Origin: an uncultured Candidatus Saccharibacteria bacterium
GTDB lineage: Bacteria > Patescibacteriota > Saccharimonadia > Saccharimonadales > JBBQAJ01
Assembly: GCA_964593805.1 (NCBI GenBank)
Contig: CAZQHP010000001.1
Span: 91 to 64,090, forward strand
Length of the DNA: 64,000 nucleotides
Direction of reading: 5' to 3'
Made by a program: the position numbers and the translations under genes. Position 1 is the stretch's first letter; the number at the start of each line of letters is the position of its first letter. The notes beneath the pieces are model-generated. The model was not told the DNA's origin and searched no databases. It worked only from the letters and a program-made list of their open reading frames with translations. Of the stretch, positions 5,298 through 63,731 are shown one piece after another.

Positions 5298-7625
5298 TTA
5301 TAGGATGGGTGGCAAGCTGGTGATGGCATCGTAGCCGGCGTTGCCGCCAGGAGTACAGCTTTCTGATATGGCACACGGTGTTGCCAACCAGGTAGCTGGC
5401 GAGGCGTTGAATGTTTCGGCAGGAGTATTTGCACTCAAAGTGCCAATGCTACGGTAAAGTTTTAATTCCTTTGCAATAAACGCGCCTTTTACGGTAAGCG
5501 TGGATTTGCAAATAGTATTAAGTTCGTTTGTAGCATTTGGTGGCCGCCAAGTATTAGGAAGAAGATCGGGAAACGCGCAGGTGTAAATCTTCCCTCTGTT
5601 GCCCGCACTATCCGGTTGTGCCACGTACACGCCGTCCAATTGCGAAACTCCGGGTGCAATGTATATATTACCCTTTACCACTAGGTAGAAATTGGGCATA
5701 TCGTCAATGGTTGTAGCTCCACCAGCAAGCTTTATATTTCCCGCTATGTAAGCATCGCCGTTGACATAAATTATCGGACGTTTTCCTAATGCTATCGGCG
5801 GAGTTCCAAACGGTGTTGTTATAGTTAGCGCACCATTTGAAAACCATGCCGTTTTAGTATCGATTGTCCCAGATGCGATTGTTAATACTATGGGATCGGG
5901 AGTAACGTTCTTGAGTGTGTCGTAATAATCAGTAGGGCACGGTATTATGCCATCCGCCAAGGAACCCCCAAACAATGACCCAAAAAGAATCGTATTTGCA
6001 AAACTAAGACCAATTGGGGGAGAAGGATTTGTACGATTTTGGGCACTCGCTATGCCGTTTATTAAACCCCGTGAAAATGTAGCAAGATTGGTACCTGCAC
6101 CTATATTCGGATTTGTTACTTGATTCCAAGATGTCAATACTGGACTAGCTATCCCAGCTCCCCAGCCAGTACAGCCCGCAATCGGAATACCAGCGGCTAC
6201 ATCCCCGTTTCTGGCTATAAAGAAAGGTTTGCTGACGACATTAAAACTAACCGTGCCCGGACAAGAAATGGATCCAGCGTTGCCGCCGCTAACATTCCAG
6301 TCAATCGTATAGGTGCCGGCAGTATTGGCAACTATGGAACCCGACGTAACGTTTACGCTTGAACCTCCCGCAATATCCGGTATGGTAATGTTTGACTGCG
6401 GCGAACCAGAGGTAGGCAGAGGCGAAACCGTCAAACTAGCTTTACCGCCGGTGTATGTCACGGCAGTACTGGGTGAGTTGCTTATGTTCACTGTACTAGT
6501 GAAAGCCTGGCCAATTTCCGGCGACGATGGACTTATACTCACAAGATTACAACTTACGGTAGGCGCTGGGGGTGGGGGCGTACAGTTCTGATCAAAGTTA
6601 ATACTATCGTATGGCAGCTGGAACTGTATGCCATTCCGGCTTTTTACGCCTAAAAGCTCCCATTCGTACCGTTTGCCTGGTTGTACGGTAATTGTTTTGC
6701 TGTCCGCAACTCCATTACCTCCTGTCAGCGGCCAAAAATTTACAGGCGTTCTGACCCCGGTAGATGAAACTTCATATAGAATTGTGGCTATTGTGTTTGG
6801 ATTGCCACTTGTGTCGGTCTGGTTGCTTACGCCAGCATCGGCATCAAACCATGAAATATCAACTGGAGTAGGAACTTTTACGCTACACGAAGGAGCAAAC
6901 TGCAAACGCATATCTGCCCAACGGTCTGGGTCTAGCCACAACTGACCCAGCGCGAACTTATTGGTAGAACCGGCATAATAACTCAGTTTGTCTTGTGCTT
7001 GGGCAGTTATACTAAAACCATTGATACCATTCACAAACCCGTTATTTTGAGCTCGAATATAAGCAACGCGGTAGCCCTCATGCCCGGGAACAGCTGAAGG
7101 TGTTAAGCTACTCATGTTTAAGGTAATGGTGGGATCTCTGTAAACACTTGGGTTTGGATTATTGCAGTCTAATCCAGCGTTTCCAAAAAATGTCAGTGGC
7201 GCCGACATGGCTTCACTTGATGCTGCAGAACCTGCCGTTGCAGAAAAGAAAATAAATGCCGTATCTGGAAATTCCCTGGGCGCCCCGGCCAGGCTATCTA
7301 TATTCACACCCGGCGGAGAAAAGTTGTTTGGACACCAAGCCGCGTTGTTTATGCGAACTGTCACTTGTGATCGGCCATCGTCTTTTACAAAAAGCTTCAC
7401 GGTGGCTTCCGGCGCATCCAGCGCGTAATTGGCTCCAGCAGCCGCAACTGAAAGATACACATCGCCAACCTGAGTTGACGTCCCTATGTTTGTAAATTGC
7501 CCCGAGGGCACGTCTGGTAGTTTATTTGTAGCGGCTGATGCTTTGGACCCGGGGATAAACAAAAACGTAGTCACAAAAAAAGCCAAAAACAAAGTGTAGC
7601 GTTGGTATTTTTTAGGCAAAATCAT
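5298..7625 (-). CDS. Large secreted protein (775 aa), Gly/Asn/Thr/Ser-rich, pilus-operon associated; function unknown
   Basis: Signal-peptide-like N-terminus (..LFLAFFVTTFLFIPGSKASA). Start abuts the stop of the upstream TPR gene. It lies directly upstream of pilM. Confidence 0.7.
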   Translation of the reverse strand: MILPKKYQRYTLFLAFFVTTFLFIPGSKASAATNKLPDVPSGQFTNIGTSTQVGDVYLSVAAAGANYALDAPEATVKLFVKDDGRSQVTVRINNAAWCPNNFSPPGVNIDSLAGAPREFPDTAFIFFSATAGSAASSEAMSAPLTFFGNAGLDCNNPNPSVYRDPTITLNMSSLTPSAVPGHEGYRVAYIRAQNNGFVNGINGFSITAQAQDKLSYYAGSTNKFALGQLWLDPDRWADMRLQFAPSCSVKVPTPVDISWFDADAGVSNQTDTSGNPNTIATILYEVSSTGVRTPVNFWPLTGGNGVADSKTITVQPGKRYEWELLGVKSRNGIQFQLPYDSINFDQNCTPPPPAPTVSCNLVSISPSSPEIGQAFTSTVNISNSPSTAVTYTGGKASLTVSPLPTSGSPQSNITIPDIAGGSSVNVTSGSIVANTAGTYTIDWNVSGGNAGSISCPGTVSFNVVSKPFFIARNGDVAAGIPIAGCTGWGAGIASPVLTSWNQVTNPNIGAGTNLATFSRGLINGIASAQNRTNPSPPIGLSFANTILFGSLFGGSLADGIIPCPTDYYDTLKNVTPDPIVLTIASGTIDTKTAWFSNGALTITTPFGTPPIALGKRPIIYVNGDAYIAGNIKLAGGATTIDDMPNFYLVVKGNIYIAPGVSQLDGVYVAQPDSAGNRGKIYTCAFPDLLPNTWRPPNATNELNTICKSTLTVKGAFIAKELKLYRSIGTLSANTPAETFNASPATWLATPCAISESCTPGGNAGYDAITSLPPIL

Positions 7626-11476: not shown

Positions 11477-12568
11477 ATGAGTTTATCAATCGGGATTGTC
11501 GGGTTGCCAAATGTCGGTAAGTCTACGCTGTTTAATGCGCTGACAGACGGTGATATTCTGGCTGCCAATTATCCTTTTGCAACCATTGAACCAAATACTG
11601 GCATTGTGCCCATACCAGACGAACGGCTGCAAAAACTGGCAGATGTATACAAGACAAAAAACATCGTCCCCGCGACGGTTACATTTGTAGACATTGCCGG
11701 CCTGGTTGCCGGCGCCAGCCAAGGCGAAGGCCTGGGCAACCAATTTCTAGCAAATATTCGTAGTTGCAATGCCGTCTGCCATGTTGTCCGAGCTTTTACG
11801 GACGATAATGTCCTGCATGTTGACGCCAAACATAATCCTCAGAAAGATATCGAGGTTATTAATACCGAGCTGGCGCTCGCGGACCTCCAGACCGTAGAAA
11901 AACGCTTGCCCCAAAGCGAAAAAATGGCCAAAGCTGACCCCAAACTCAAGCCCCAGGTAGATGCACTTCTCTGGGCACGAGATATCCTAAACGACAGCGT
12001 GCCTTTATTTGCAGCTCCCTCACGACTTGCAGCTCACGACTTGCTTCTTCAGGAGCTTCAGCTCCTGACGGCAAAGCCGACTATATATTTATTTAACGTA
12101 GATGAAGAAACGCTGGCCGATGACGCCAAAAAATCTCAGCTGGCTCAGCTAGTCGCACCTGCGGAAGCAGTTTTTGTCTGTGCAAAGTTAGAAAGCGAAC
12201 TAAAAAGCCTGGACACTGCAGACCGCGTAGAATTGCTAGGCAGCTATGGGGTTCAAGAATCCGGGCTGGTCCAATTAACCCACGCCGCCTACGATACGCT
12301 CGGCCTGCAGAGTTTTCTGACTGCCGGCGAAAAAGAAGTCCGGGCCTGGACAATCCCAAAAAGTGCAACCGCTCCGCAAGCCGCCGGCGTAATTCATGGC
12401 GATTTTGAGCGCGGCTTTATAGCCGCCCAAATTGTAGATTATGATGACCTGATAACGGCTGGTTCAGAAGCGGCCGCTAGGAGCTCTGGCAAAGTACGCA
12501 CCGAAGGCAAAGATTACGCAATGCGCCCCAACGATGTAGTAGAATTCCGTTTCAACGTATCAAAATAG
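11477..12568 (+). CDS. ychF: Ribosome-binding ATPase YchF
   Basis: GIVGLPNVGKSTLFNALT P-loop, ..VDIAGLV.GAS.GEGLGN.FL.., and a C-terminal TGS-like ..DFERGFI.A.. Confidence 0.95.
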   Translation: MSLSIGIVGLPNVGKSTLFNALTDGDILAANYPFATIEPNTGIVPIPDERLQKLADVYKTKNIVPATVTFVDIAGLVAGASQGEGLGNQFLANIRSCNAVCHVVRAFTDDNVLHVDAKHNPQKDIEVINTELALADLQTVEKRLPQSEKMAKADPKLKPQVDALLWARDILNDSVPLFAAPSRLAAHDLLLQELQLLTAKPTIYLFNVDEETLADDAKKSQLAQLVAPAEAVFVCAKLESELKSLDTADRVELLGSYGVQESGLVQLTHAAYDTLGLQSFLTAGEKEVRAWTIPKSATAPQAAGVIHGDFERGFIAAQIVDYDDLITAGSEAAARSSGKVRTEGKDYAMRPNDVVEFRFNVSK

Positions 12569-12620
12569 CTGTTAGCTGTTAGCTGTTAGCTGTTAGCTGT
12601 TAGCTGTTAGCTGTTAGCTA
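12567..12620. repeat. Tandem heptanucleotide array (AGCTGTT) x7.7 filling the whole convergent intergenic spacer
   Basis: Direct reading. The array begins within the ychF TAG stop and ends 2 nt before the stop of the convergent gene at 12623. Confidence 0.97.
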
Positions 12621-12622
12621 CA

Positions 12623-13297
12623 TTATAGTTTTACAGTTACGGAATTTATATCCCAGTTCATGCTGATGTTGCGGATAATTTTTAGAGCGTCATTGTGTCC
12701 CGGTATGTTGTTTTCTTCGTAGTAATGGTCGCTTTCCATCAAATTTTCCGTTACGCTCAGGCAATAAATTTCGTCTCCAACTAAATGCATCCGGTCCACG
12801 GCATTTATGCTGGCTATCGGCGTGGCTATTATAAGTTTTTTAACCTTGGTCGGTTTTAGAAAGTCGGCGGCGACTTCCAGCGAAACACCACTCTGAAGCG
12901 CGTCAGAAACCAATATAACTACATGGTGCCTCAAAAATTTGGGATCTATTTCTCCCCCGTCGCTTAACAGTTTGTTGAGTTCATGAAATTTCTCAACCCG
13001 CTGGTCTTCAATCATGCCGTGATATTCGCTGACAAACTCGTCTATTTCCCCCTGGGAAAGTTTTTGGTTATAGGTAAGGGTGTTGGTGGTCATAGAAGCA
13101 AGCGGTTCGGTTTCGCCTGGCAGGATTATATTGTCGCTCAAAAGTACCATAAGGTTGGCGTGCAGCCGCATGGCAATCTGCGCGCCTACCAGCACCCCGC
13201 CGCTGTTAAGCGCCACCACTGCGCATTGTTCGCTTTTGTATCTTTTTAGCTTCAGCGCCAATTGGCGCCCGGCCTCGGCCCGATTTTTGAAATACAT
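12623..13297 (-). CDS. Phosphoribosyltransferase-family protein
   Basis: MYFKNRAEAGRQLALKL..AVVALNSGGVLVGAQIA.. matches the putative-PRTase pattern. The ATG at 13297 sits 6 nt after a TATAAT box. Confidence 0.65.
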   Translation of the reverse strand: MYFKNRAEAGRQLALKLKRYKSEQCAVVALNSGGVLVGAQIAMRLHANLMVLLSDNIILPGETEPLASMTTNTLTYNQKLSQGEIDEFVSEYHGMIEDQRVEKFHELNKLLSDGGEIDPKFLRHHVVILVSDALQSGVSLEVAADFLKPTKVKKLIIATPIASINAVDRMHLVGDEIYCLSVTENLMESDHYYEENNIPGHNDALKIIRNISMNWDINSVTVKL

Positions 13298-16001: not shown

Positions 16002-16023
16002 ACAAAATTTCTCCGAAATTTTG

Positions 16024-16058
16024 AGCTATCAGCTGTCAGCTGTCAGCTCTTAGCTAGT
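16024..16058. repeat. Degenerate tandem heptamer array (AGCTNTC-like) x5
   Basis: agctatc agctgtc agctgtc agctctt agctagt, between the ssb stop and the efp start. Confidence 0.9.
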
Positions 16059-16534
16059 TAAAACGGAATGTCATCTAGGTTTATTGGTTCGTCGCCGATG
16101 TCTTCAATGACTATGTCGTCTTTTTTGGGTGCTTTGCTGGGTTTTGGCGTCTGGTCACTTTGATCACCACCATCGCTATTGCTGGAACCACTACTTTGGC
16201 CGCCTGCTCCGCCAAGGAATGTTACGTCTTGAGCCACCACCTCTACCTTGCTGCGCTTCTGGCCGTCTTTTTCCCAGCTACTTGACTGCAAGCGTCCATT
16301 TACCAAGCAAGGCCGGCCCTTGGTCAGATACTGCGCCACGCGCTCTCCTAGCGGCCCCCAGGCCACAATATCCACGTAATCGGTAGCCTCTTTCCACTCG
16401 CCGTCGCCGCCTTTGAAACTGCGGTTGAGCGCCAAACTGAACGAACAAACGTTCTGTCCATTCGGCGTTTGCCGAAGTTCCGGGTCCCGAGTCAGGTTGC
16501 CCATTAATATTACTTGGTTAAAACTTCGAGCCAT
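16058..16534 (-). CDS. ssb: Single-stranded DNA-binding protein
   Basis: NQVILMGNLTRDPELR OB-fold start, Gly/Ser-rich linker, acidic tip ..DDIPF. GGAG RBS. Confidence 0.95.
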   Translation of the reverse strand: MARSFNQVILMGNLTRDPELRQTPNGQNVCSFSLALNRSFKGGDGEWKEATDYVDIVAWGPLGERVAQYLTKGRPCLVNGRLQSSSWEKDGQKRSKVEVVAQDVTFLGGAGGQSSGSSNSDGGDQSDQTPKPSKAPKKDDIVIEDIGDEPINLDDIPF

Positions 16535-27628: not shown

Positions 27629-29341
27629 CTACGCGGGTGTGTTGCCGGGGGTGTTGGCATCATCTGCGAGAGGCATAATGGGCGGTATCAAAGGTGGAGG
27701 CACTGGCGGCGGCGCAGTTGGATTAGCTAGCGAAGCGGCGGTGCTGTCCGCGGGCAGACCGGAACCTGGCATTACTAGTCCCGCCGGCAAATTGGGATCC
27801 GCCGCTGGAGTCAAGGTTGGGGTAGCTGGAGCCGATGCATCACTTTTGTTTAGATCCACCGGAAAAGCGTTTAGGGATTGAACCGGTTCGAGCATCTGTG
27901 GCGGCGTGCCGCTGACTGCTTGCATGACAGCGCTTCGGGCATCAGAAACTCCGCTGCCGGTTTGGTTTGTGGAAGCGAGCGGTCCGGGCGTCTGAGCCAA
28001 ATGCGGGCTGCCGACCACTTTTTCCAAGTCAGAGAGAGTGCTTAGCGATTGGTTCGGTTCTGGCGCCGGGCTAGAAGCAGGACCACTAATATCTTCGGCT
28101 GTTGGCTGAAAAATACTTGTTGCCGGCGCATTTTGGCTGGTTGCCGGTGTTTCATGAGAAAGCAAAGGGCCTTGTGCGGCATTTGCGCCCAGTGGATCGA
28201 TGCTTGGATCTAGGCCTTCTGGGGTGCTGTTGGCTGTTAGCGTACCTCCAAGCGTGGGCGGCTGTGTGATTAGGCGAGAACCGGCCGAATATTCGTTAGC
28301 CTCTTCTGTTGGAAGCGGTTCAATCACTTTTTGCTTCATGGCCTCAATGTCTTTGGCTCGTTTTAGTATGCCCTCTTTGTCTATGTCTATTTGCTCTAAC
28401 GGGTTTTCTTCTGGTTCTTCGCTGTCTGGCAAAGCATTTAGATCAATTAGGGGCTTTTTGTTGCCATGATCAATCTCTAGCGAGCCGTCATCAACTTCTT
28501 CGACTTTTGTTTCAACCATTTCAGCCGGTGCCGCCGCCTGTTTGCTCTCTGTGACTTCTGGCAGTTCTGCATCGTCTTCTGCGGGAGCCTCCGTTACGGT
28601 CTGGGGCTGTAGTTGGCTGGCCACCAGTTGCTGGTTGGCGCCGGCTGCCATCAGCTTGGCGCTTAGCTGCATGGTTGCCGAAGAGGTTTTTTCATTACTA
28701 AAACGATTGGTTTCCGCCACAATACCGGTTAGAAAGGCAGTGGCCATCTGACCGTCTAGTACATCTGCTTTCAAGCTGAGACCCATGTCTAGCAGCATTT
28801 CGCATAGGCTGCTGGCATCTGGCTGCACCCAGTTTATACTGCCCAAGTTGGCCCCGTCTTGAGTGTTTACGCTTACCACCGTGGCATCGTGCAAAATACG
28901 GCCGTGAGAAGTGATGGCTTGGTCCAAATCTTTCTGCTCGTTTACCCCCAGAGCCATGACCACGTCTACGTTAAAATCACCTTGGCTGAATTCTAGGTCT
29001 TTGTCGCTTATAGAGGTCCGGTACGGCGTTATGAAAATTTTGACCATCTGGTCTTCTACTTTATAGCGCAGTTTGTCGGCTTTGGATTTGTCCAGAGCAA
29101 TTATAAAATCTCGCAGACTGTCGGTGTTTTTTTCAAGCGTCTTTTCCGGCTGCAAAAACTCAATGGTATTAGGAACCACGCCGCTAAAAACAGCTGTGGC
29201 GTGTTTGCCTAGTTTGTTGAGTAGCAAAGTCAGACCTATAACGGCCGCCAACTGATCTACCGAAGGATTAGCACGCACGGTCACTAAGACGTTATTTGCC
29301 TGCTTCAATCTGTCGGTAATCTGCTTTTTGGGGGAGTCCAT
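27629..29341 (-). CDS. DHH/DHHA1-family (NrnA-like) protein with degenerate catalytic motifs and a ~300-aa Pro/Ala/Ser-rich C-terminal extension
   Basis: ..ATAFLTGIVAETNRFS.. resembles the NrnA linker/DHHA1 region. It sits upstream of truB, as in many rbfA-nrnA-truB clusters. No canonical DHH residues were seen. Confidence 0.5.
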   Translation of the reverse strand: MDSPKKQITDRLKQANNVLVTVRANPSVDQLAAVIGLTLLLNKLGKHATAVFSGVVPNTIEFLQPEKTLEKNTDSLRDFIIALDKSKADKLRYKVEDQMVKIFITPYRTSISDKDLEFSQGDFNVDVVMALGVNEQKDLDQAITSHGRILHDATVVSVNTQDGANLGSINWVQPDASSLCEMLLDMGLSLKADVLDGQMATAFLTGIVAETNRFSNEKTSSATMQLSAKLMAAGANQQLVASQLQPQTVTEAPAEDDAELPEVTESKQAAAPAEMVETKVEEVDDGSLEIDHGNKKPLIDLNALPDSEEPEENPLEQIDIDKEGILKRAKDIEAMKQKVIEPLPTEEANEYSAGSRLITQPPTLGGTLTANSTPEGLDPSIDPLGANAAQGPLLSHETPATSQNAPATSIFQPTAEDISGPASSPAPEPNQSLSTLSDLEKVVGSPHLAQTPGPLASTNQTGSGVSDARSAVMQAVSGTPPQMLEPVQSLNAFPVDLNKSDASAPATPTLTPAADPNLPAGLVMPGSGLPADSTAASLANPTAPPPVPPPLIPPIMPLADDANTPGNTPA

Positions 29342-29477: not shown

Positions 29478-29834
29478 ATGCCCATTATCAAATCAGCTAA
29501 AAAGCGTGTTCGAGTTGCCCGCAAGGCTACCGTGCGCAATGCCAAAACCAAGCGTAATCTGCGCCTGGCTCTGAAATCTTTTCAGTCTTCAGCAAGCGGC
29601 AGTACGCACAGCAAGGCCCAAAGCGCCCTAGACAAAGCTGGCAAAAAAGGCTTGCTCCACAAGAACAAAATTGCCCGCAAAAAGCGCCAGCTGGCCGCGG
29701 CCGCCAAAAAAGCCGGCGTAAAGACCGCTGGAATCGCCAAAGCCAAAAAAGTCGTTACAAAGAAACCAGCCGTAAAGAAAGCAGCTCCAAAGAAGGTAGT
29801 CGCCAAAAAGAAACCAGCAACAAAGAAAAAATAA
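29478..29834 (+). CDS. rpsT: 30S ribosomal protein S20 with a Lys/Ala/Pro-rich C-terminal extension
   Basis: MPIIKSAKKRVRVARKATVRNAKTKRNLR.. is the canonical S20 start. The last ~45 aa are AKKA/PKK repeats. Confidence 0.92.
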   Translation: MPIIKSAKKRVRVARKATVRNAKTKRNLRLALKSFQSSASGSTHSKAQSALDKAGKKGLLHKNKIARKKRQLAAAAKKAGVKTAGIAKAKKVVTKKPAVKKAAPKKVVAKKKPATKKK

Positions 29835-29860
29835 GCTTTTTATAAGACCAGTGTCGCAAC

Positions 29861-30325
29861 GCACGCTTCGCTCGCTTAAACCATACTTTTTGGTCAGCAA
29901 AAAGTAAGCAAAAACTGACGCCATGGGCTGCGAAACGTGACTGAATCATCTACCATGCATATGAGGCGCCAGCAGAATAGCGACTTCGTAGTTCTTTGGG
30001 ATTACTCACGTATGCTGCTGGCTCTACTCCTCATATACCTGAGATGATGCAATCAGTTTCTTGAATGGCGGGAACAAGCAGAGCCCCGCAAGCGAGCCAA
30101 ATCTATAATCCGCCGGAGGCGGATACCTTGGAGGCTTCTCAGACTCTGGAGGTTCCTGAAAAGCGTAGTGTCAAAGCTACCATTTGAGAGAGGAGTCCAC
30201 CGCGGCGGACGACGAGCATGGTAGCGCTTGACGACGAAGCTTATCAAGAACTGGAAGGGCTGTCATTTCTTTGGTTACTTTCTTGTTGACACAAGAAAGT
30301 AACTCAGCAACTGAGCCGAACGCGC
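29861..30325. ncRNA. Copy A of a two-copy ~465-nt non-coding, helix-rich element (candidate structured RNA or non-autonomous mobile element; class unknown, strand undetermined)
   Basis: Aligns with 45531-46005 in conserved blocks separated by non-homologous but self-complementary segments. No conserved ORF. It lies between the convergent rpsT and holA stops. Confidence 0.55.
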
Positions 30326-30338
30326 GCGTGAATGTGCT

Positions 30339-31238
30339 TTAAATGTTTAATAAAAATGCTTGCACTCCGTCGTCGGCGTCTATGGCGGTCGTTTTTAATT
30401 GCACGTCCAATTGCGCCAGTTCATGAACCAGTTGTTTAAGTTTTTCGGGTGGTAAATTACGAGTAATTTTGCGGCTTTTGCTGACTACAAACGGATTGAT
30501 TTTGGCATCGGCGGCAATGTTTGCGTCACTACGATCCCCAGCCGCTTTGACCACAGCCAGCACATGCAGCTGCCAGGCGAGCATGGCAATGATTTGTTGC
30601 GGTTCAACCCGGCTGGCACGCTGCTGCGCGTAGAGTTTTAGCATATGTTTTTGGTCGCCAGCAAAAGCGGAGTCTAGCAGCTGGAATATCGTGCTCCGCG
30701 GATTTGGTTCTGTTAGCAAATCAATTTCCGCACGCGTGACTTTGGAATTGTACGTTGCCAGTTTTGCCAGCTCGTTGACGAGCAATTGCTGATTGGCACC
30801 TACCCGTTCTACTAAGTATTGTGCGTCAGATTGGCTTATGTCTGCCTGCTCGGTAATCCATTTCGCCAGTCCGTATTCATCCAGCTCATTAAATTCTTTG
30901 TATTCGGTGTTTTTCTTCAGATATTTGTAGTAACTAGAGCGTTTGTCTAGTTTGGGTTCGTGAATAATCACGTCTGTTGTTTCTGGCAAATTACTCAAAA
31001 GTTGTTCAACTTTTTCTACAAACTCTTTGTTGGCACTTGGAGCCCGTAAAACCACCAACTTTTTGCTGGCCAAAAAAGGCAAACTTTCCAGCGCTTCCCG
31101 AATCCGGTCATATTCCGCTTCTTCCCCATCTATCCTATCCAACCCCATGTCTGTGTATTCTTTGATAAACGTCGAAGCCAGCCGTTGAAGCTCGGCCTGC
31201 ACCAAATACGAATTACTCCCCGAAAGCGTAGTTATCAT
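30339..31238 (-). CDS. holA: DNA polymerase III delta subunit
   Basis: MITTLSGSNSYLVQAEL.. and ..KLVVLRAPS.. show the HolA pattern. The ATG at 31238 lies 14 nt after the mutM stop. The longer ORF-track start overlaps mutM. Confidence 0.8.
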   Translation of the reverse strand: MITTLSGSNSYLVQAELQRLASTFIKEYTDMGLDRIDGEEAEYDRIREALESLPFLASKKLVVLRAPSANKEFVEKVEQLLSNLPETTDVIIHEPKLDKRSSYYKYLKKNTEYKEFNELDEYGLAKWITEQADISQSDAQYLVERVGANQQLLVNELAKLATYNSKVTRAEIDLLTEPNPRSTIFQLLDSAFAGDQKHMLKLYAQQRASRVEPQQIIAMLAWQLHVLAVVKAAGDRSDANIAADAKINPFVVSKSRKITRNLPPEKLKQLVHELAQLDVQLKTTAIDADDGVQAFLLNI

Positions 31239-31252
31239 CGTGGTGGAGATTA

Positions 31253-32161
31253 TCACGCCTTTTGGCATTTGGGGCAAGTGTGGGTGCCGCGGCCGGCTAC
31301 TCGAGTCTTTGTAATTATTGTACCGCAGCGTGGACACTCTTGACCCTCACGGCGGAATACACGCGCAAAACTGAGGTAGCTGCCCTTTTTGCCTTCCGCA
31401 TTCACATAATTTCTATCTGTTGAACCGCCTTTTGCTATAGCTAGATTTAGGACAAATTGAAGTTTGGTAAATAATTTGTATATTTTGACTTTGGAAAGAT
31501 TTTTTACCAATGTAGCCGGGTGGATTTTGGCGTCCCATAGGCTTTCGTCGGCGTATATATTGCCTACGCCCGCTATCACGGTTTGGTCCAAAAGTGCGGC
31601 TTTAATATTTGTATTCGGCCGGCGTAAAAGCCGCTCCTGAAAGGCTTTTTTGGTAAAATCAGCAGCCAATGGCTCGGGTCCAACGCGTCTAAAAAAGTCT
31701 ATGTTTGGCACCTCGATGGTGGGCAAAAGTTTCATCCAGCCAAATTTGCGCTGGTCGTTGAAGAAAAGTTCGGAGCCGTCTGTGAAGGTAATAATTACCC
31801 TAGTTGATTTGTCGGGTAAGCCTCCGACCAAAGATTCACTCGGGTGTCCAGCCCCAAACCTTTCTTCAGCTGTCAGCTGTCCGCTACTAGCTGTTAGCTT
31901 GTGCGCTTCGCGCACATAAACCATTTGTCCGGTCATTTTGAGATGACTCACGAGTGTGTGTCCGGAAGACAAATCAATGAGCAATATTTTTGCACGCCGC
32001 CGGACACCAATGATTTTGGAACCCACCAAAAACGCCTTTACGTCCGCCTCAGCGTTTGGAAATGATTTGGCCCAGTCGTGCGTAATGCCAGCAATGGCCT
32101 TACCAATAACAAATTTATTTAGTCCTGTTCGGACCGTTTCAACCTCAGGTAGTTCTGGCAT
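31253..32161 (-). CDS. mutM: Formamidopyrimidine-DNA glycosylase (Fpg/MutM), with a repeat-encoded insertion
   Basis: MPELPEVETVR N-terminus, H2TH region, and C-terminal zinc finger CPRCG...CPKCQ. Confidence 0.93.
   Translation of the reverse strand: MPELPEVETVRTGLNKFVIGKAIAGITHDWAKSFPNAEADVKAFLVGSKIIGVRRRAKILLIDLSSGHTLVSHLKMTGQMVYVREAHKLTASSGQLTAEERFGAGHPSESLVGGLPDKSTRVIITFTDGSELFFNDQRKFGWMKLLPTIEVPNIDFFRRVGPEPLAADFTKKAFQERLLRRPNTNIKAALLDQTVIAGVGNIYADESLWDAKIHPATLVKNLSKVKIYKLFTKLQFVLNLAIAKGGSTDRNYVNAEGKKGSYLSFARVFRREGQECPRCGTIITKTRVAGRGTHTCPKCQKA
31867..31901. repeat. Tandem heptamers inside mutM
   Basis: cagctgt cagctgt ccgctac tagctgt tagcttg. It encodes ..HKLTASSGQLTAE.. Confidence 0.9.
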
Positions 32162-44724: not shown

Positions 44725-44803
44725 AGCGTACAGCTTTTAGCTGACAGCGTACAGCATAAGAAGTTAGAACTAACCGCTACAAGCTAACTGCTGACAGCTG
44801 GTA
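44725..44803. repeat. Degenerate 7-nt-periodic tract (AGCGTAC/AGCTGAC/CCGCTAC-type units) filling the dnaG-divergent intergenic region
   Basis: agcgtac agctttt agctgac agcgtac agcataa gaagtta gaactaa ccgctac aagctaa ctgctga cagctgg. It ends at a TACAAT box. Confidence 0.8.
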
Positions 44804-44814
44804 CAATAATGCTT

Positions 44815-45519
44815 ATGCCAAGCGACAAACTTTCTGGACTTCTACTGCACAAAGATCCGTCTGATAGTGCTGACAATGCCAATGAGCTTCCGGCAGCGCC
44901 TCCCGCGCCACCGCCGCTTCAGCGCGTAACGGCTCAGCACAACCCTTACGATTTTATTACCAACCCCGGGGCTCCCGCGAAGAAAAAGCTGCTGCCTGGC
45001 GGTAATTCAAAGACCGGCCGGTTACTTTTGGCGGCCGCGGCTGGCGTGGTACTGATTGTGCTGGCTTTGGTCGTTATGGCGGTCCTAAACAGCGGAAGTT
45101 CCGCACTCAAAACAGATTACGCGAACCTTGCTCAGCAGCAAGCAGAATTAATACGTGTTAGCGGTGTTGGCGCCACCAAAGCCCGCCAGGCGGAAGCTAA
45201 AAACCTGGCAATCACCACGCAGTACACGCTTACTTCACAGCAGCCTGGTATTTTATCGCTTGCCAAAAAAGCCGGCGCCTCTACAGATGCTAAAACGCTG
45301 ACGCTCGGCAAAGATGCTCAGACAGATGCCGCGCTCACCAGCGCCGACCAAGCCAATCAATTCGACGAAGTTTTTACCAAAACTCTGCGGGAAGGCCTGC
45401 AAAAATACCAGCAAGCGCTTAAGAAAATTTACGACGCCACAAGTAGTAGCTCTACCAGAGACACCCTATCCAAAGATTACAATGCCATAGATGCCCTTCT
45501 GGGCAATAAAGTGGAATAG
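44815..45519 (+). CDS. Membrane-anchored hypothetical protein
   Basis: TM segment LLLAAAAGVVLIVLALVVMAV. The ATG at 44815 lies 7 nt after TACAAT (44802-44807). The ORF-track ATG at 44809 is too close to the -10 box. Confidence 0.55.
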   Translation: MPSDKLSGLLLHKDPSDSADNANELPAAPPAPPPLQRVTAQHNPYDFITNPGAPAKKKLLPGGNSKTGRLLLAAAAGVVLIVLALVVMAVLNSGSSALKTDYANLAQQQAELIRVSGVGATKARQAEAKNLAITTQYTLTSQQPGILSLAKKAGASTDAKTLTLGKDAQTDAALTSADQANQFDEVFTKTLREGLQKYQQALKKIYDATSSSSTRDTLSKDYNAIDALLGNKVE

Positions 45520-45530
45520 AACCTCTTAGC

Positions 45531-46005
45531 GCACACCTCGCTTGCTTAAACCATACTTTTTGGTCAGCAAAAAGTATGCAAAAACTGACGCCATGGGCCG
45601 CGAAACATGATTGTCCCCATAACCAGCCAACTGCTGCGCCGAAACGACTAAAGGCCCAAACTTTTATTTGGGATCAGTTTGGACGAGTTCCGGCTTGATT
45701 CAGCAGTTGTCTGAATGAGTGCATCAGTTTCTTGAATGGCGGGAACAAGCAGAGTCCCGCACCGCGGGACAAATTAAATAATCCGCCTATGGCGGATGCC
45801 ATGGTCTTGTTCAGGCTCTGGAAGTTCCTGATGACGGAGTTGTTAAAACTACCATTAGAGTGAGGAGTCCGCCGCGGCGGATGACGAGTATGGTGGTTTT
45901 GACAATGGAGACATCAAGAACTGGAAGTGGCTGTCGCTCTTTTTGCATACTTTTTCTTCGACAAGAAAAAGTATGGCGGGAAGTCCGCTGTGGCGGACGC
46001 CGAAA
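45531..46005. ncRNA. Copy B of the two-copy ~465-nt non-coding helix-rich element
   Basis: Homologous blocks shared with 29861-30325. It lies between the convergent stops of the 44815 gene and the yjbR-like gene. It has terminal hairpins with identical stems, CATACTTTTT/AAAAAGTATG. Confidence 0.55.
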
Positions 46006-46011
46006 CTGTCT

Positions 46012-46359
46012 TTATTCTACTGTCGGTGCCGATTGACTACCTTCTCCGCTCACTAAATTATACGAATGCAGTATTAGACCTCGTACTTCTTCCCACGGGA
46101 GTTGTCCAGTGAGTATGACGGTATTCCAATGCTTTTTGTTCAGATGATAGCCCTCCAGCACCGTTTCAAATTTGTCGCGCAAAATAACCGCCAGCTGAGG
46201 GTCGCATTTTAAACTTATGCGCAGCGGATTAGTACCCTCGCTGATTAGCGCGAACATTTTGTCTTTTACCTTATACACAGCCACGCCCTCGCCAAACGGA
46301 TAATCCAGCCGCGCTTTCGGCATGCTCAACACATATTCTTCAACTGTCTTATGATCCAT
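46012..46359 (-). CDS. MmcQ/YjbR-family protein
   Basis: ..ARLDYPFGEGVAVYKVKDKMFALI....RISLKCDP......LNKKHWNTV.. shows the YjbR pattern. Confidence 0.75.
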   Translation of the reverse strand: MDHKTVEEYVLSMPKARLDYPFGEGVAVYKVKDKMFALISEGTNPLRISLKCDPQLAVILRDKFETVLEGYHLNKKHWNTVILTGQLPWEEVRGLILHSYNLVSGEGSQSAPTVE

Positions 46360-61342: not shown

Positions 61343-62629
61343 TTATCTAGCTTTGACTAGGAGTTTGCGGGCGATTTGGCGTTCGTCCCATGGGACTAGT
61401 TTTCCGCCCAGGTTGCGGCTGTCTTGGTGGCCTAAGCCTGCGAGTATTACCAGGTCGCCTTTTTTGGCTTCTTGGAAAGCCGTTTTGATGGCTTGCCTGC
61501 GGTCGGCTATCACCTGGGTTTTTTTCTGGCCTTTGGCGATTTCTATGCCGGCGTAAACGGCCCTACGGATGGCTTCCGGGTCTTCTTTGTAGGTTTCGTC
61601 ATCTGTTAGGTAAATTTTGTCAGCGTGTTTGGCGGCAATTTCACCCATAATTGGCCGTTTGCCGCGGTCGCGGTCGCCAGTGGCGCCAAAAACCAAGCTG
61701 ACTTTGCCAGCAGCCGCCTGCCGGGCAGCTTCCAGCACTTTGGCCAGGGCGTCAGGCGTGACGGCGTAATCAACCCACACCGTAAACGGCTGGCCGGCGT
61801 CTATGCTTTCCATCCTGCCGGGCACGAGCTTCAGCCCTGCCAAGCCTTTGGCAATAGCCGGCGGCTTAAGCCCCAGCAGTAGCCCCACGGCGGCGGCGGC
61901 GCTGGCGTTATAGACGTTAAACAACCCGGTTAGCTGGATCCGGAGATCAAGCGGTTTTTCGCCGTTCATCAGCTGCCAGCTCATGCCTTTTTTGTCTGGT
62001 TTGACCAAAGTAATTCGTTCTGTGCTGTCCGGTCCCTGGCCATAGCTGACAACTTGCCCTGATGACTGCAGCATAAAGTAGTCATATTTGGCATCGTCGG
62101 CGTTGAGCACGCAAAAAGACGGTTTCATGTAGTCGTTGAACAGCCGGGCTTTGGCCGCCGCGTAGCTGTCCATAGTCCGATGATAATCCAGATGATCCTG
62201 GGTCAGATTAGTCAGCACGGCGAATTCTATGGGAATACCCAGCATTTTGTGCTGGTGCAGAGCCTGGCTGGGAGCCTCCAGCACCACAAAATCCACTTTT
62301 GAGCGTTTGGCATCGCGCAAAAAACGCAGCAATTGTTCGGTTGGCGGCAAGGTAAGGTGTGTTTTGTTGGGCTTGGCTTTGCCATTTACTTCAATAATGG
62401 CCGTTGTGTACATGGCGGTTTTGTGGCCGGCACTTTTGAGCATTTCATTTATAAAACAGCAGGTGGTGGTCTTGCCATTGGTTCCCGTAACCGCAATTAC
62501 CCGCAGGCCTTTGGCTGGAAAGCCAAACCGGGCCTGCAAACTGTAAATCCGGCCTTTGCGATAGCCTTCTTCGGCTAATCGTATGCCTTTGACTGGGAGA
62601 ACTTTGCGAACAAGTTTCTTTGGATCCAT
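61343..62629 (-). CDS. murE: Mur ligase family protein, MurE-like (short N-terminus)
   Basis: ..VIAVTGTNGKTTT.. P-loop, ..LEAPSQAL.., and a C-terminal ..GATGDRD..KRP.MG.. No DNPR motif was seen (..TDDETYKEDP..). The start is uncertain (ATG 62629 preferred; the ORF-track start would overlap tsaD). Confidence 0.75.
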   Translation of the reverse strand: MDPKKLVRKVLPVKGIRLAEEGYRKGRIYSLQARFGFPAKGLRVIAVTGTNGKTTTCCFINEMLKSAGHKTAMYTTAIIEVNGKAKPNKTHLTLPPTEQLLRFLRDAKRSKVDFVVLEAPSQALHQHKMLGIPIEFAVLTNLTQDHLDYHRTMDSYAAAKARLFNDYMKPSFCVLNADDAKYDYFMLQSSGQVVSYGQGPDSTERITLVKPDKKGMSWQLMNGEKPLDLRIQLTGLFNVYNASAAAAVGLLLGLKPPAIAKGLAGLKLVPGRMESIDAGQPFTVWVDYAVTPDALAKVLEAARQAAAGKVSLVFGATGDRDRGKRPIMGEIAAKHADKIYLTDDETYKEDPEAIRRAVYAGIEIAKGQKKTQVIADRRQAIKTAFQEAKKGDLVILAGLGHQDSRNLGGKLVPWDERQIARKLLVKAR

Positions 62630-62651
62630 CCCTCCTAGTATACTTGCTCTC

Positions 62652-63731
62652 ATGATAATTCTTGGCATAGAAACCAGCTGTGATGAAACGGCTTGCGGGA
62701 TTGTGCAGAACGGCAAAAAACTTTTGGCAAATGCAGTGCTTTCCAGCATGGATTTGCATGCCGTATACGGCGGCGTAGTCCCGGAAATCGCCGCCAGAAG
62801 CCACATTGAAGCGATTATCCCTGTTATTCAGCAAGCTTTAGGGCAAGCAAACTGTACTTGGGACGACATTGACGGAATTGCGGTAACCTACGGTGCTGGG
62901 CTGGGCGGTTGCCTGCTGGTGGGCGTCATGACCGCCCGCACGCTGGCAATTGCCAAAAACAAGCCCATGTACGCCGTCAACCACGTTGAAGCGCACGCTT
63001 ATGCCAACTTCCTAACGGAAGTAGCTAACAGCTTACAGCTGACAGCTGACAGCTATAAATTACCGCATTCCGCACCTTCCTTTCCCATGTTAGGGCTAAT
63101 AGTCAGTGGCGGGCATTCGCAGCTGGTCCTCTGGCGCAATCACTTTGATTACACCTTGCTAGGGCAAACGCAAGACGACGCTATAGGTGAAGCGTTCGAC
63201 AAAGTCGCCAAAATACTTGGTCTCCCCTACCCTGGCGGCCCCAGTCTGGAGACATTTGCCAAAAACGGCGACCCAAATGCCTTTAGTTTCCCCAAAGCCA
63301 AGATGAGCAACAGATACGACTACTCATTTAGCGGCATCAAAACAGCCGTTTTGCGCGCTGCCCAGAAATTAATAGGTGAAAACCACGACTTCCCTTCCCA
63401 TAAGCTTTCAGAACGGCTCTCAGAGGCTCAGAAAGCAGACATTGCGGCCAGCTTCCAGCGTGTGGCCGTGGAAACAGTAGTAGACAAGACGTTACAGGCC
63501 TATGAGGAGTTCAATCCACGAAGCGTTGTCATCGGCGGCGGCGTAGCCGCCAGCCCGGAACTTCGCCGCCAATTAGCCGAACGCCTTCCCATCCCTATCG
63601 AATATACAGACATGAAACTATGCACCGACAACGGCGCCATGATAGCCACCCTCGGCTGCTTCAAAGCTATGAATAATCAAGAAAAAGCCGACCCCTACTC
63701 TCTAGAAATCGCCCCAAATTTATCAATGTAA
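62652..63731 (+). CDS. tsaD: tRNA N6-adenosine threonylcarbamoyltransferase TsaD, with a repeat-encoded insertion
   Basis: MIILGIETSCDETA.. and ..NHVEAH...VSGGHS.. The ATG at 62652 lies 7 nt after TATACT. Confidence 0.93.
   Translation: MIILGIETSCDETACGIVQNGKKLLANAVLSSMDLHAVYGGVVPEIAARSHIEAIIPVIQQALGQANCTWDDIDGIAVTYGAGLGGCLLVGVMTARTLAIAKNKPMYAVNHVEAHAYANFLTEVANSLQLTADSYKLPHSAPSFPMLGLIVSGGHSQLVLWRNHFDYTLLGQTQDDAIGEAFDKVAKILGLPYPGGPSLETFAKNGDPNAFSFPKAKMSNRYDYSFSGIKTAVLRAAQKLIGENHDFPSHKLSERLSEAQKADIAASFQRVAVETVVDKTLQAYEEFNPRSVVIGGGVAASPELRRQLAERLPIPIEYTDMKLCTDNGAMIATLGCFKAMNNQEKADPYSLEIAPNLSM
63021..63055. repeat. Tandem heptamers (ACAGCTG-type) x5 inside tsaD
   Basis: gtagcta acagctt acagctg acagctg acagcta. 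It encodes ..VANSLQLTADSY.. between the HxxxH region and the VSGGHS motif. Confidence 0.92.

Follow-up and report, generated by a model that had tools for sequence, protein, structure and literature searches.

Two copies of an inserted, helix-rich non-coding element between convergent genes of a Candidatus Saccharimonadales bacterium

Genomes of the candidate phyla radiation (CPR), Saccharibacteria included, rank with the most compact known, and the usual description has them almost devoid of repeats and mobile DNA. The window analysed here is a 64-kb stretch of core chromosome from a CPR bacterium of the Candidatus Saccharimonadales, and all coordinates of copy A and copy B below refer to it. 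Its sole non-coding stretches longer than 300 nt are these two copies, both of which lie between convergent genes. What is this sequence, and how did it come to lie there? An earlier note had taken the two for paralogous structured RNAs of no recognised class. Both copies are lineage-specific insertions. We tentatively favour the reading that they represent a lineage-restricted, modular mobile element resembling miniature inverted-repeat transposable elements (MITEs), which would be kept between convergent stops, be transcribed as the 3' untranslated region (3'-UTR) of both neighbours, and have its fold selected as a 3'-end barrier or insulator.

Insertion at two convergent junctions

Copy A (29835-30338, 504 nt) and copy B (45520-46011, 492 nt) each fill the entire gap between two genes, S20 and holA for copy A and a 236-aa protein gene and a YjbR gene for copy B, and both pairs are convergent as the earlier note had described. 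The copies were homologous end to end, both by MAFFT (29856-30338 against 45526-46011, 80-84% column identity) and by blastn (74% over 456 nt, E=1e-64). The homology of two nearly equal copies claimed in the earlier note was thereby confirmed, but the limits given there (29861-30325 and 45531-46005) were too narrow, the true unit being slightly longer at both sites. Within the window the copies occupied 2 of the 12 convergent junctions and 0 of the ~58 other junctions. The remaining ten convergent junctions overlap or have gaps of 3-113 nt.

Site A was empty in five relatives (L001, L002, L003, L014 and L015; holA 70-81% identical), in which 0-2 nt separate the stops of holA and S20. Site B was empty in L031-L034 (YjbR 86%), in which the stops abut, and in L035 (YjbR 90%), in which the two genes overlap. 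The synteny around site B (PGA_cap, VanY, RNase T, YjbR, a 222-236-aa protein, DnaG) was kept in L031-L035. The C-termini of the flanking proteins were unchanged, so that 504 and 492 nt were added within a span of a few nucleotides.

Site A was filled in the closest relative, L007 (holA 87%; holA DNA 82% identical), whose Logan contig ends 63 nt into the element, with 64 of 66 positions matching copy A. The tail of the element was 97% identical between the window and L007 and the adjoining last 200 nt of holA were likewise 92-95% identical, hence this comparison is uninformative. An identical copy B was present in a second assembly, L013. The family is also present in three other Saccharimonadales assemblies (L004, L007 and L036), in other ARRANGEMENTS. 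The distance between holA and S20 in L004 (holA 66%) is 2.3 kb, bounded by two inverted right-end modules that each start at a stop codon (...CGCCGAAACTGTCTTTA). This insertion contains ~270 nt homologous to the 3' half of the element plus three unrelated open reading frames (ORFs); among these ORFs Pfam identified one ACT-domain protein and nothing mobility-related, and the insertion gave no Rfam match (E<=1). The left-end module in L036 (YjbR 88%) adjoins yjbR in the orientation opposite to copy B, reads CCATACCTTTTTGGTCAGCAAAAAGGT with one extra compensated C-G pair, and is followed to the point where the contig ends in the hairpin. The arrangements in L004 and L036 show that both junctions were hit independently.

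L004 also carries a second hairpin-rich non-coding stretch of ~240 nt (5400-5640; GGTCCAGACCGAGTCAGTGACACAAAGTCAGTGTCCCGCGG...) just inside the module on the S20 side, which is unrelated to the window element and gave no Rfam match. We further observed that Logan contigs break within the element. The contig of L006 breaks 285 nt into copy A, where the blocks of 31 nt or more shared by copies A and B begin, and those of L007 and L036 break within the palindromic terminal hairpins. Short-read assemblies therefore systematically under-report the element.

Core, fold and inverted termini

At the left of the element, an inverted-repeat module is followed by a long hairpin and a conserved junction block; a small G+C hairpin, a three-tier stem and the right inverted-repeat module then complete it. 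The features of copy A are as follows.

29835-30338, unstranded: whole insertion, flanked by the stops of S20 (29832-29834) and holA (30339-30341)
29858-29922, plus strand: left terminal inverted repeat, with hairpin 29884-29906 (TACTTTTTG-GTCAG-CAAAAAGTA) and linker GCAAAAA
29932-30060, unstranded: long imperfect hairpin with conserved base GAAAC.TGA/TCAGTTTC, conserved apex TTTGGGAT and fast-evolving arms of ~108 nt (RNAalifold on both copies)
30052-30090, unstranded: most conserved core block ATCAGTTTCTTGAATGGCGGGAACAAGCAGAGCCCCGCA, the first 32 nt identical in copy B
30108-30124, unstranded: small G+C hairpin ATCCGCC-GGA-GGCGGAT, with conserved stem and a loop unlike that of copy B
30140-30262, unstranded: 3' domain, the three-tier stem (pairing test with copy B and L004)
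30256-30330, minus strand: right terminal inverted repeat, with hairpin 30275-30302 (inverted-repeat alignment and hairpin pattern)

The corresponding features of copy B are as follows.

45520-46011, unstranded: whole insertion, flanked by the stops of the 236-aa gene (45517-45519) and YjbR (46012-46014)
45528-45592, plus strand: left terminal inverted repeat, with hairpin 45554-45576, loop GTCAG at 45563-45567 and its partner CTGAC at 45585-45589
45602-45731, unstranded: long hairpin, its arms paired though unrelated in sequence to copy A
45723-45761, unstranded: conserved core block, 32 nt exact with copy A
45781-45797, unstranded: small hairpin ATCCGCC-TAT-GGCGGAT (RNAalifold on both copies)
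45812-45933, unstranded: 3' domain (pairing test with copy A and L004)
45922-46011, minus strand: right terminal inverted repeat, with hairpin 45946-45975 (CATACTTTTTCTT-CGAC-AAGAAAAAGTATG on the plus strand)

Conservation between the copies is uneven, and the identical runs are longer than uniform divergence predicts. Identity was 75% outside alignment columns 89-196 and 45% inside them, and the copies had exact runs of 33, 32 and 21 nt in common. The longest of these had P=0.004 against uniform divergence, and the sum of the top three was reached in 0 of 20000 shuffles. Two exact occurrences of the 32-mer ATCAGTTTCTTGAATGGCGGGAACAAGCAGAG were counted in the window, against 0 expected. All five near-identical blocks quoted in the earlier note were present, and the point in ATCAAGAACTGGAAG.GGCTGTC stands for a 1-nt indel with no substitution.

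The earlier note had also pointed to a dissimilar segment of ~110 nt that forms a long hairpin in both copies, and this was borne out. The segment corresponds to columns 89-196 and folds as a long hairpin in A and in B despite 45% identity, with differences at all bases, 11 arm pairs altered on both sides and the apex common to both copies. RNAalifold on the two sequences gave 19 compensatory pairs between the copies in total. Folding z-scores were -5.1 to -7.6 against shuffles for both strands of both copies, and RNAalifold support was similar for either strand. The covariation is drawn from two full copies and one half copy (L004). On the minus strand, the small G+C hairpin is followed by a U-rich tail and is terminator-like (terminator result for copy B).

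The 3' domain has the tiers CAG.C/G.CTG, GTTCCTGA/TCAAGAAC with a conserved C.A, and TGTCAAAGCTACCAT/ATGGTAGC..TTGACG, and an apical GTCC.CCGCGGCGGAC. In the three sequences available for it (A, B and L004), 90.4% of cells were paired and 9 pairs were changed on both sides; 0 of 500 shuffles reached any of five measures, and slid registers gave 32-53%. The helix that the earlier note had quoted as covarying, GCTACCAT/ATGGTAGC in copy A and ACTACCAT/ATGGTGGT in copy B, proved real (G-C to A-U, plus U-A to U.G) and was kept in L004 with additional compensatory changes. The long-range pairing of CAGTTTCTTGA with TCAAGAACTG proposed there did not hold up as well, having weaker support than two alternatives. 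In one of these, CAGTTTC pairs with GAAAC.TGA to form the base of the long hairpin; in the other, TCAAGAAC pairs with GTTCCTGA, a helix that covaries in L004 (GCTCC/GAGC). The test of the 3' domain with L004 thus supports GTTCCTGA/TCAAGAAC over CAGTTTCTTGA/TCAAGAACTG. Counted over strand-symmetric helices, G.U cells numbered 11 on the plus strand and 5 on the minus strand, with no significant bias, and the C.A conserved in all three sequences is a G.U if read on the minus strand. The core itself is constrained, because exact unpaired blocks adjoin stems that change only by compensation.

The element has no coding capacity. As the earlier note had stated, no ORF is conserved: there are stops in all six frames and indels shift the frame between A and B. 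No gene was called at the element in any assembly examined. A concatenated six-frame translation of both copies found nothing among 5.8 billion predicted proteins, a weak test in which the 8000 most word-sharing candidates were scored.

The ends of both copies are inverted repeats. When reverse-complemented, the right end aligned with the left end over ~75 nt in copy A and ~50 nt in copy B, with a score reached by 0 of 500 shuffles. In each terminal repeat, the linker GCAAAAA joins an A/T-rich hairpin (TACTTTTT-loop-AAAAAGTA) to 4-5 nt that complement its loop. The pairing between loop and downstream segment covaries over five distinct modules (GTCAG/CTGAC, TGTCA/TGACA, TGTCG/CGACA, TCGT/ACGA and GTCGT/ACGAC), and the covarying pairs centre on a constant GTC/GAC. 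With a 10-bp stem 1, a 5-bp stem 2 and an A-rich crossing strand of 6-9 nt, the module probably folds as an H-type pseudoknot. Every terminal module has the sense orientation of its neighbouring gene, with the order, outward from the stop codon, of outer segment, A/U-rich 10-bp hairpin, GCAAAAA, loop complement.

In the left module of copy A, CTGAC (29915-29919) complements the loop GTCAG (29893-29897). In its right module, the minus-strand loop TGTCA (TGACA at 30287-30291 on the plus strand) complements a minus-strand TGACA (30261-30265 on the plus strand), and a short CTCAG..CTGAG hairpin lies at 30304-30316. The minus-strand loop TGTCG of the right module of copy B complements CGACA; this end has an outer hairpin, GTCCGC-TGTG-GCGGAC, and its terminus CGCCGAAACTGTCTTTA is common to L004. 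The only sign of a target-site duplication was an ambiguous TA/TTA beside the right-type terminus, coinciding with stop codons, and the outer segments of the two ends differ in both copies.

Sequences resembling the terminal hairpins were also seen elsewhere. Within the holA coding sequence (31058-31076, minus strand), CCTTTTTTGGCCAGCAAAAAGTTGG matches the left hairpin of the element at 18 of 19 nt; it encodes LPFLASKKLVV and is most likely a coincidence. The terminal-module pattern TACTTTTT-N5-12-AAAAAGTA-N-GCAAAAA matched 15 IMG/VR contigs, several of them with a G+C content of 42-63%, at which such matches would very rarely arise by chance. Positions include 1262-1299 and 2767-2804 in L018 (two inverted copies 1.5 kb apart), 1569-1602 in L022, 1498-1531 and 1601-1633 in L023, 260-291 in L028 and 9642-9672 in L019, and the motif also occurs in L026 and L029. 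The viral motif is intergenic in regions of phage structural genes (after the capsid gene, near terminase), often right behind a G+C-rich hairpin, and in some cases the loop complements the bases after GCAAAAA (AAGCGT/ACGCTT in L028). Eight of the viral loci gave no Rfam match at gathering thresholds. The hairpin motif may be widespread, or convergent.

Mobile element, RNA gene or palindromic DNA

Searches for known families and for a wider distribution were negative. No catalogued RNA was found in the 64 kb by Rfam 15 at gathering thresholds, RNase P, SRP and 6S RNAs, riboswitches and ribozymes being among the families covered, nor any tRNA or tmRNA by ARAGORN. With permissive filters (E<=10), both copies gave snoRNA, miRNA and Moco-II noise only, at E 0.64-8 and far below gathering, so that the earlier note's failure to recognise an RNA class stands. 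The exact core 21-mer was absent from 185,579 GTDB representative genomes but for one match in a contig of a Methanolinea metagenome-assembled genome, which we rejected as chance since only 22 nt were in common. The core 20-mer had three matches in JGI metagenomes, all chance (Methanolinea-like sequence and a high-G+C coding region). Five patterns from the core, terminus and hairpin loop of the element were not found in IMG/VR viral contigs, and blastn of copy B against phage and plasmid collections gave nothing. We found nothing relevant in the literature on structured RNAs or MITEs of CPR bacteria and Saccharibacteria, or on the module sequence. The element appears confined to a narrow Saccharimonadales clade.

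Several known kinds of mobile or structured element were considered and rejected. Repetitive extragenic palindromes (REPs) and bacterial interspersed mosaic elements (BIMEs), which depend on REP-associated tyrosine transposases (RAYTs), did not fit, as the terminal hairpins are A/T-rich and lack GTAG and no Y1 transposase was present among the window genes. For palindrome-associated transposable elements (PATEs) or omega RNAs derived from IS200/IS605, the modules are inverted and not direct, the window has no TnpA or TnpB, and there was no HEARO match. A retron msr-msd or a diversity-generating retroelement was dismissed because no reverse transcriptase lies within the 64 kb and the variable segment differs at all bases, not just adenines. 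Some strings (AAUGGCGGGAA, AAUCCGCC and UCAGA) resemble the P, Q and R elements of group I introns, an idea that was dropped; P5/P6 spacing, exon context and a model match were all absent. The GAGCCG of a group II intron domain V is present without its matching 3' arm, and the orientation and geometry were wrong for an integron attC site or an IS200/IS605 guide-type hairpin.

Insertion polymorphism, inverted termini, the absence of coding capacity, reuse of the same junctions and variable content together point to a non-autonomous mobile element. Like a MITE, the element is small (492-504 nt), has terminal inverted repeats in both copies, has no internal transposase or conserved ORF, and is present or absent at the orthologous sites A and B. 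Two copies lie in these 64 kb of the 776,748-nt source contig (ENA ERZ27284378 k139_508325), besides the relatives in L004, L007 and L036. The description as paralogous structured RNAs is thus retained in so far as the copies are paralogous, non-coding and helix-rich, show compensatory change and belong to no catalogued family, but their insertion with inverted repeats is the signature of a mobile repeat. An enzyme encoded elsewhere would recognise the inverted termini and mobilise the element in trans, and the element would persist only where it is harmless, in the 0-3-nt gap between abutting convergent stops of a compact genome. It would be transcribed passively as the 3'-UTR of both neighbours; no promoter of its own was found. 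Its nested hairpins could act as 3'-end barriers or terminator-like insulators between converging transcription units. Such a role would keep the fold under purifying selection. REPs have been reported as 3'-UTR elements with a dual role as terminators and stabilisers (bioRxiv 10.64898/2026.03.23.713779).

A number of observations weigh against this reading. There is no clear target-site duplication, no candidate transposase with matching ends was seen among the window genes, and only two copies lie in 64 kb of the 776-kb genome. A typical MITE is conserved at its termini only, whereas here conservation is higher in the interior blocks than at the right terminus, which points to a function of the core. 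A multi-domain fold of 490 nt far exceeds what a terminator needs, and template switching can keep hairpin arms complementary without selection. No canonical intrinsic plus-strand terminator was found for S20 or the 236-aa gene. Terminator-like minus-strand hairpins do occur, directly after the holA stop and within the element.

The same conservation could instead reflect a dedicated family of trans-acting large structured RNA genes (a ribonucleoprotein scaffold or ribozyme-like), acquired horizontally and duplicated, for which the inverted termini would be a closing helix with terminal hairpins and the convergent junctions a mere landing place for a gene without promoter requirement. We consider this less likely, though a serious rival. 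Exact blocks of 21-33 nt stand beside stems at 45% identity that keep their pairing and apical loop, the 3' domain is kept in the distant L004 with 9 double changes, folding z-scores are -5 to -7.6, most single-sided changes in strand-symmetric helices leave a G.U pair on the plus strand (11 cells, and 5 on the minus strand), the pseudoknot geometry with its A-rich linker is typical of RNA, and there is no ORF. The strand evidence is nevertheless mixed, given the C.A that reads as G.U on the minus strand in all three sequences, and neither strand has a conserved promoter or the plus strand a terminator. The sister lineages ought to share a cellular RNA of importance, yet their sites are empty; the distribution is very narrow, with the core 20- and 21-mers found in the GTDB representatives and JGI metagenomes by chance only, and L004 retains just half of the core. 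A related idea, which we regard as unlikely, is that CPR bacteria have here a novel class of structured RNA that is mobile and lacks an ORF, with the ~350-nt core (long variable hairpin, conserved junction and three-tier stem) as the active RNA and the hairpin-pseudoknot termini as processing or recognition sites. The core would then serve as a ribozyme, guide or scaffold an enzyme encoded in trans, or propagate itself as RNA, and the element would spread between convergent gene ends much as ORF-less introns and omega-RNA elements do.

Insertion polymorphism and inverted repeats also fit palindromic DNA that is purely selfish and has no function for the host or at the RNA level, in which the blocks would stem from recent transposition or gene conversion and the hairpins from template switching or a need in mobilisation. 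All domains are palindromic as DNA, neither strand folds better than the other, the G.U counts have no significant strand bias, and the Logan assemblies break in the element at 31-mers shared between copies. This explanation is nonetheless distinctly unlikely. The best-conserved parts are unpaired or ambiguous in the fold (e.g. GAATGGCGGGAACAAGCAGAG), which maintenance of palindromes cannot explain; sustained constraint is needed to account for 11 compensated pairs in a 108-nt stem of 45% identity; and copy A already occupied its site when the L007 lineage split off (holA DNA 82% identical), so that the copies are not recent. Regulation in cis of a neighbouring gene, by S20 autoregulation or a riboswitch-like 3'-UTR, was suggested by the position of copy A directly after rpsT, which is highly expressed and autoregulated. 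The neighbours of copy B (the 236-aa protein and YjbR) are unrelated, relatives have the same genes without the element, and Rfam matched no riboswitch or leader family; the different neighbours and empty sites largely refute this possibility, which is very improbable. A decayed protein-coding gene or small-protein gene is scarcely credible. Copy A does hold a 29-codon ORF for a hydrophobic peptide (MHMRRQQNSDFVVLWDYSRMLLALLLIYLR), but it is absent from copy B, and the stops in all six frames, the frame-shifting indels, the lack of any called gene and the empty protein search all speak against coding.

Genomic setting and known systems

The genes that flank the two copies are as follows.

29478-29834, plus strand: ribosomal protein S20 gene, left of copy A (Pfam PF01649, E=5e-12)
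30339-31337, minus strand: DNA polymerase III delta gene (holA), right of copy A, called product 299 aa (PF06144, PF21694)
44809-45519, plus strand: 236-aa protein gene, left of copy B, no Pfam family, ortholog in the same position in L031 and L035
46012-46359, minus strand: YjbR/MmcQ-family protein gene, right of copy B (Pfam PF04237, E=4e-28)

We scanned the ~60 window genes against Pfam, and all that matched were housekeeping genes, including type IV pilus ATPases, FtsK, RNase J, PNPase, Pol I, sigma-70, DnaG, ArgRS, GroEL and a MurE-like protein. No transposase, integrase, recombinase, reverse transcriptase, TnpA or TnpB was found among them. Two proteins encoded next to the element copies, at 27629-29341 (minus strand, 570 aa) and 44809-45519 (plus strand, 236 aa), are conserved in Saccharimonadales and have no Pfam family, the 570-aa protein having a weak DHH match only. 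Neither is part of the element, because relatives without it have syntenic orthologs.

Tandem heptamer repeats (AGCTGTT/AGCTGAC, in both orientations, 3-9 units) were observed at 2454-2478, 12565-12626, 16017-16059, 31866-31899, 44770-44803 and 63019-63061. The intergenic arrays lie in a convergent junction (12565-12626), just upstream of the 236-aa gene (44770-44803) and upstream of an ORF (2454-2478). The array at 63019-63061 is in frame within a long open frame (62565-63728), where it encodes VANSLQLTADSYKL; the translation of this frame, read by eye, resembles that of tsaD.

That the only long non-coding stretches in 64 kb of a compact CPR genome are two copies of one inserted element makes the locus of wider interest. 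Their placement to the single nucleotide between abutting stops is a concrete case of selfish or semi-domesticated DNA finding room in a reduced genome, and the block-conserved core with compensatory turnover of its stems is a candidate functional RNA fold found in no catalogue. Should the element act as a 3'-UTR insulator, it would be a portable transcription boundary for genomes without spacer between convergent genes. Should the core be an active RNA, it would represent a new large RNA class.

Among known systems, OLE, ROOL, GOLLD, raiA, HEARO/omega RNA and ORF-less group I and II introns are similar to the element in being several hundred nucleotides long, multi-helical and pseudoknotted. 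HEARO, introns and, on phages, GOLLD and ROOL are associated with mobile DNA. Unlike these large ornate RNAs and introns, the element gave no covariance-model match even at E<=10, interrupts no gene and so has no exon context, and has no associated protein gene in the window.

Bacterial MITEs (Correia/CREE, RUP, Chunjie and Nezha) have terminal inverted repeats, no transposase, insertion polymorphism and a stable RNA fold, as the element does (PMC3184786). It differs from them in having only an ambiguous TA/TTA as target-site duplication and an interior of separate local domains, with no simple left-right fold-back, that is better conserved than one terminus. With SPRITE and REP/BIME it has in common hairpins that resemble or act as terminators and mRNA stabilisers and positions that vary between strains (PMC3184786; bioRxiv 10.64898/2026.03.23.713779). 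A REP, however, is a G+C-rich palindrome of ~35 nt with a 5' GTAG that is mobilised by a RAYT, and SPRITE is a short terminator-like unit, whereas the element has ten times that length and its terminal hairpins are A/T-rich, with a loop complement, and no RAYT was seen in the window.

The closest known kinds are the modular, MITE-like BOX elements of Streptococcus pneumoniae, which are intergenic, transcribed with their neighbours and non-autonomous (PMC3184786). The element has no sequence similarity to BOX, which reaches more than 100 copies per genome and is built from repeated boxB units, against the two copies seen here, and it differs further in its unique core with covarying stems and exact conserved blocks and in its host, a reduced CPR genome. 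The two are alike in being non-coding and modular, with complementary ends and very stable multi-hairpin folds, and the size range of BOX elements (67-637 nt) includes the 490 nt of the element.

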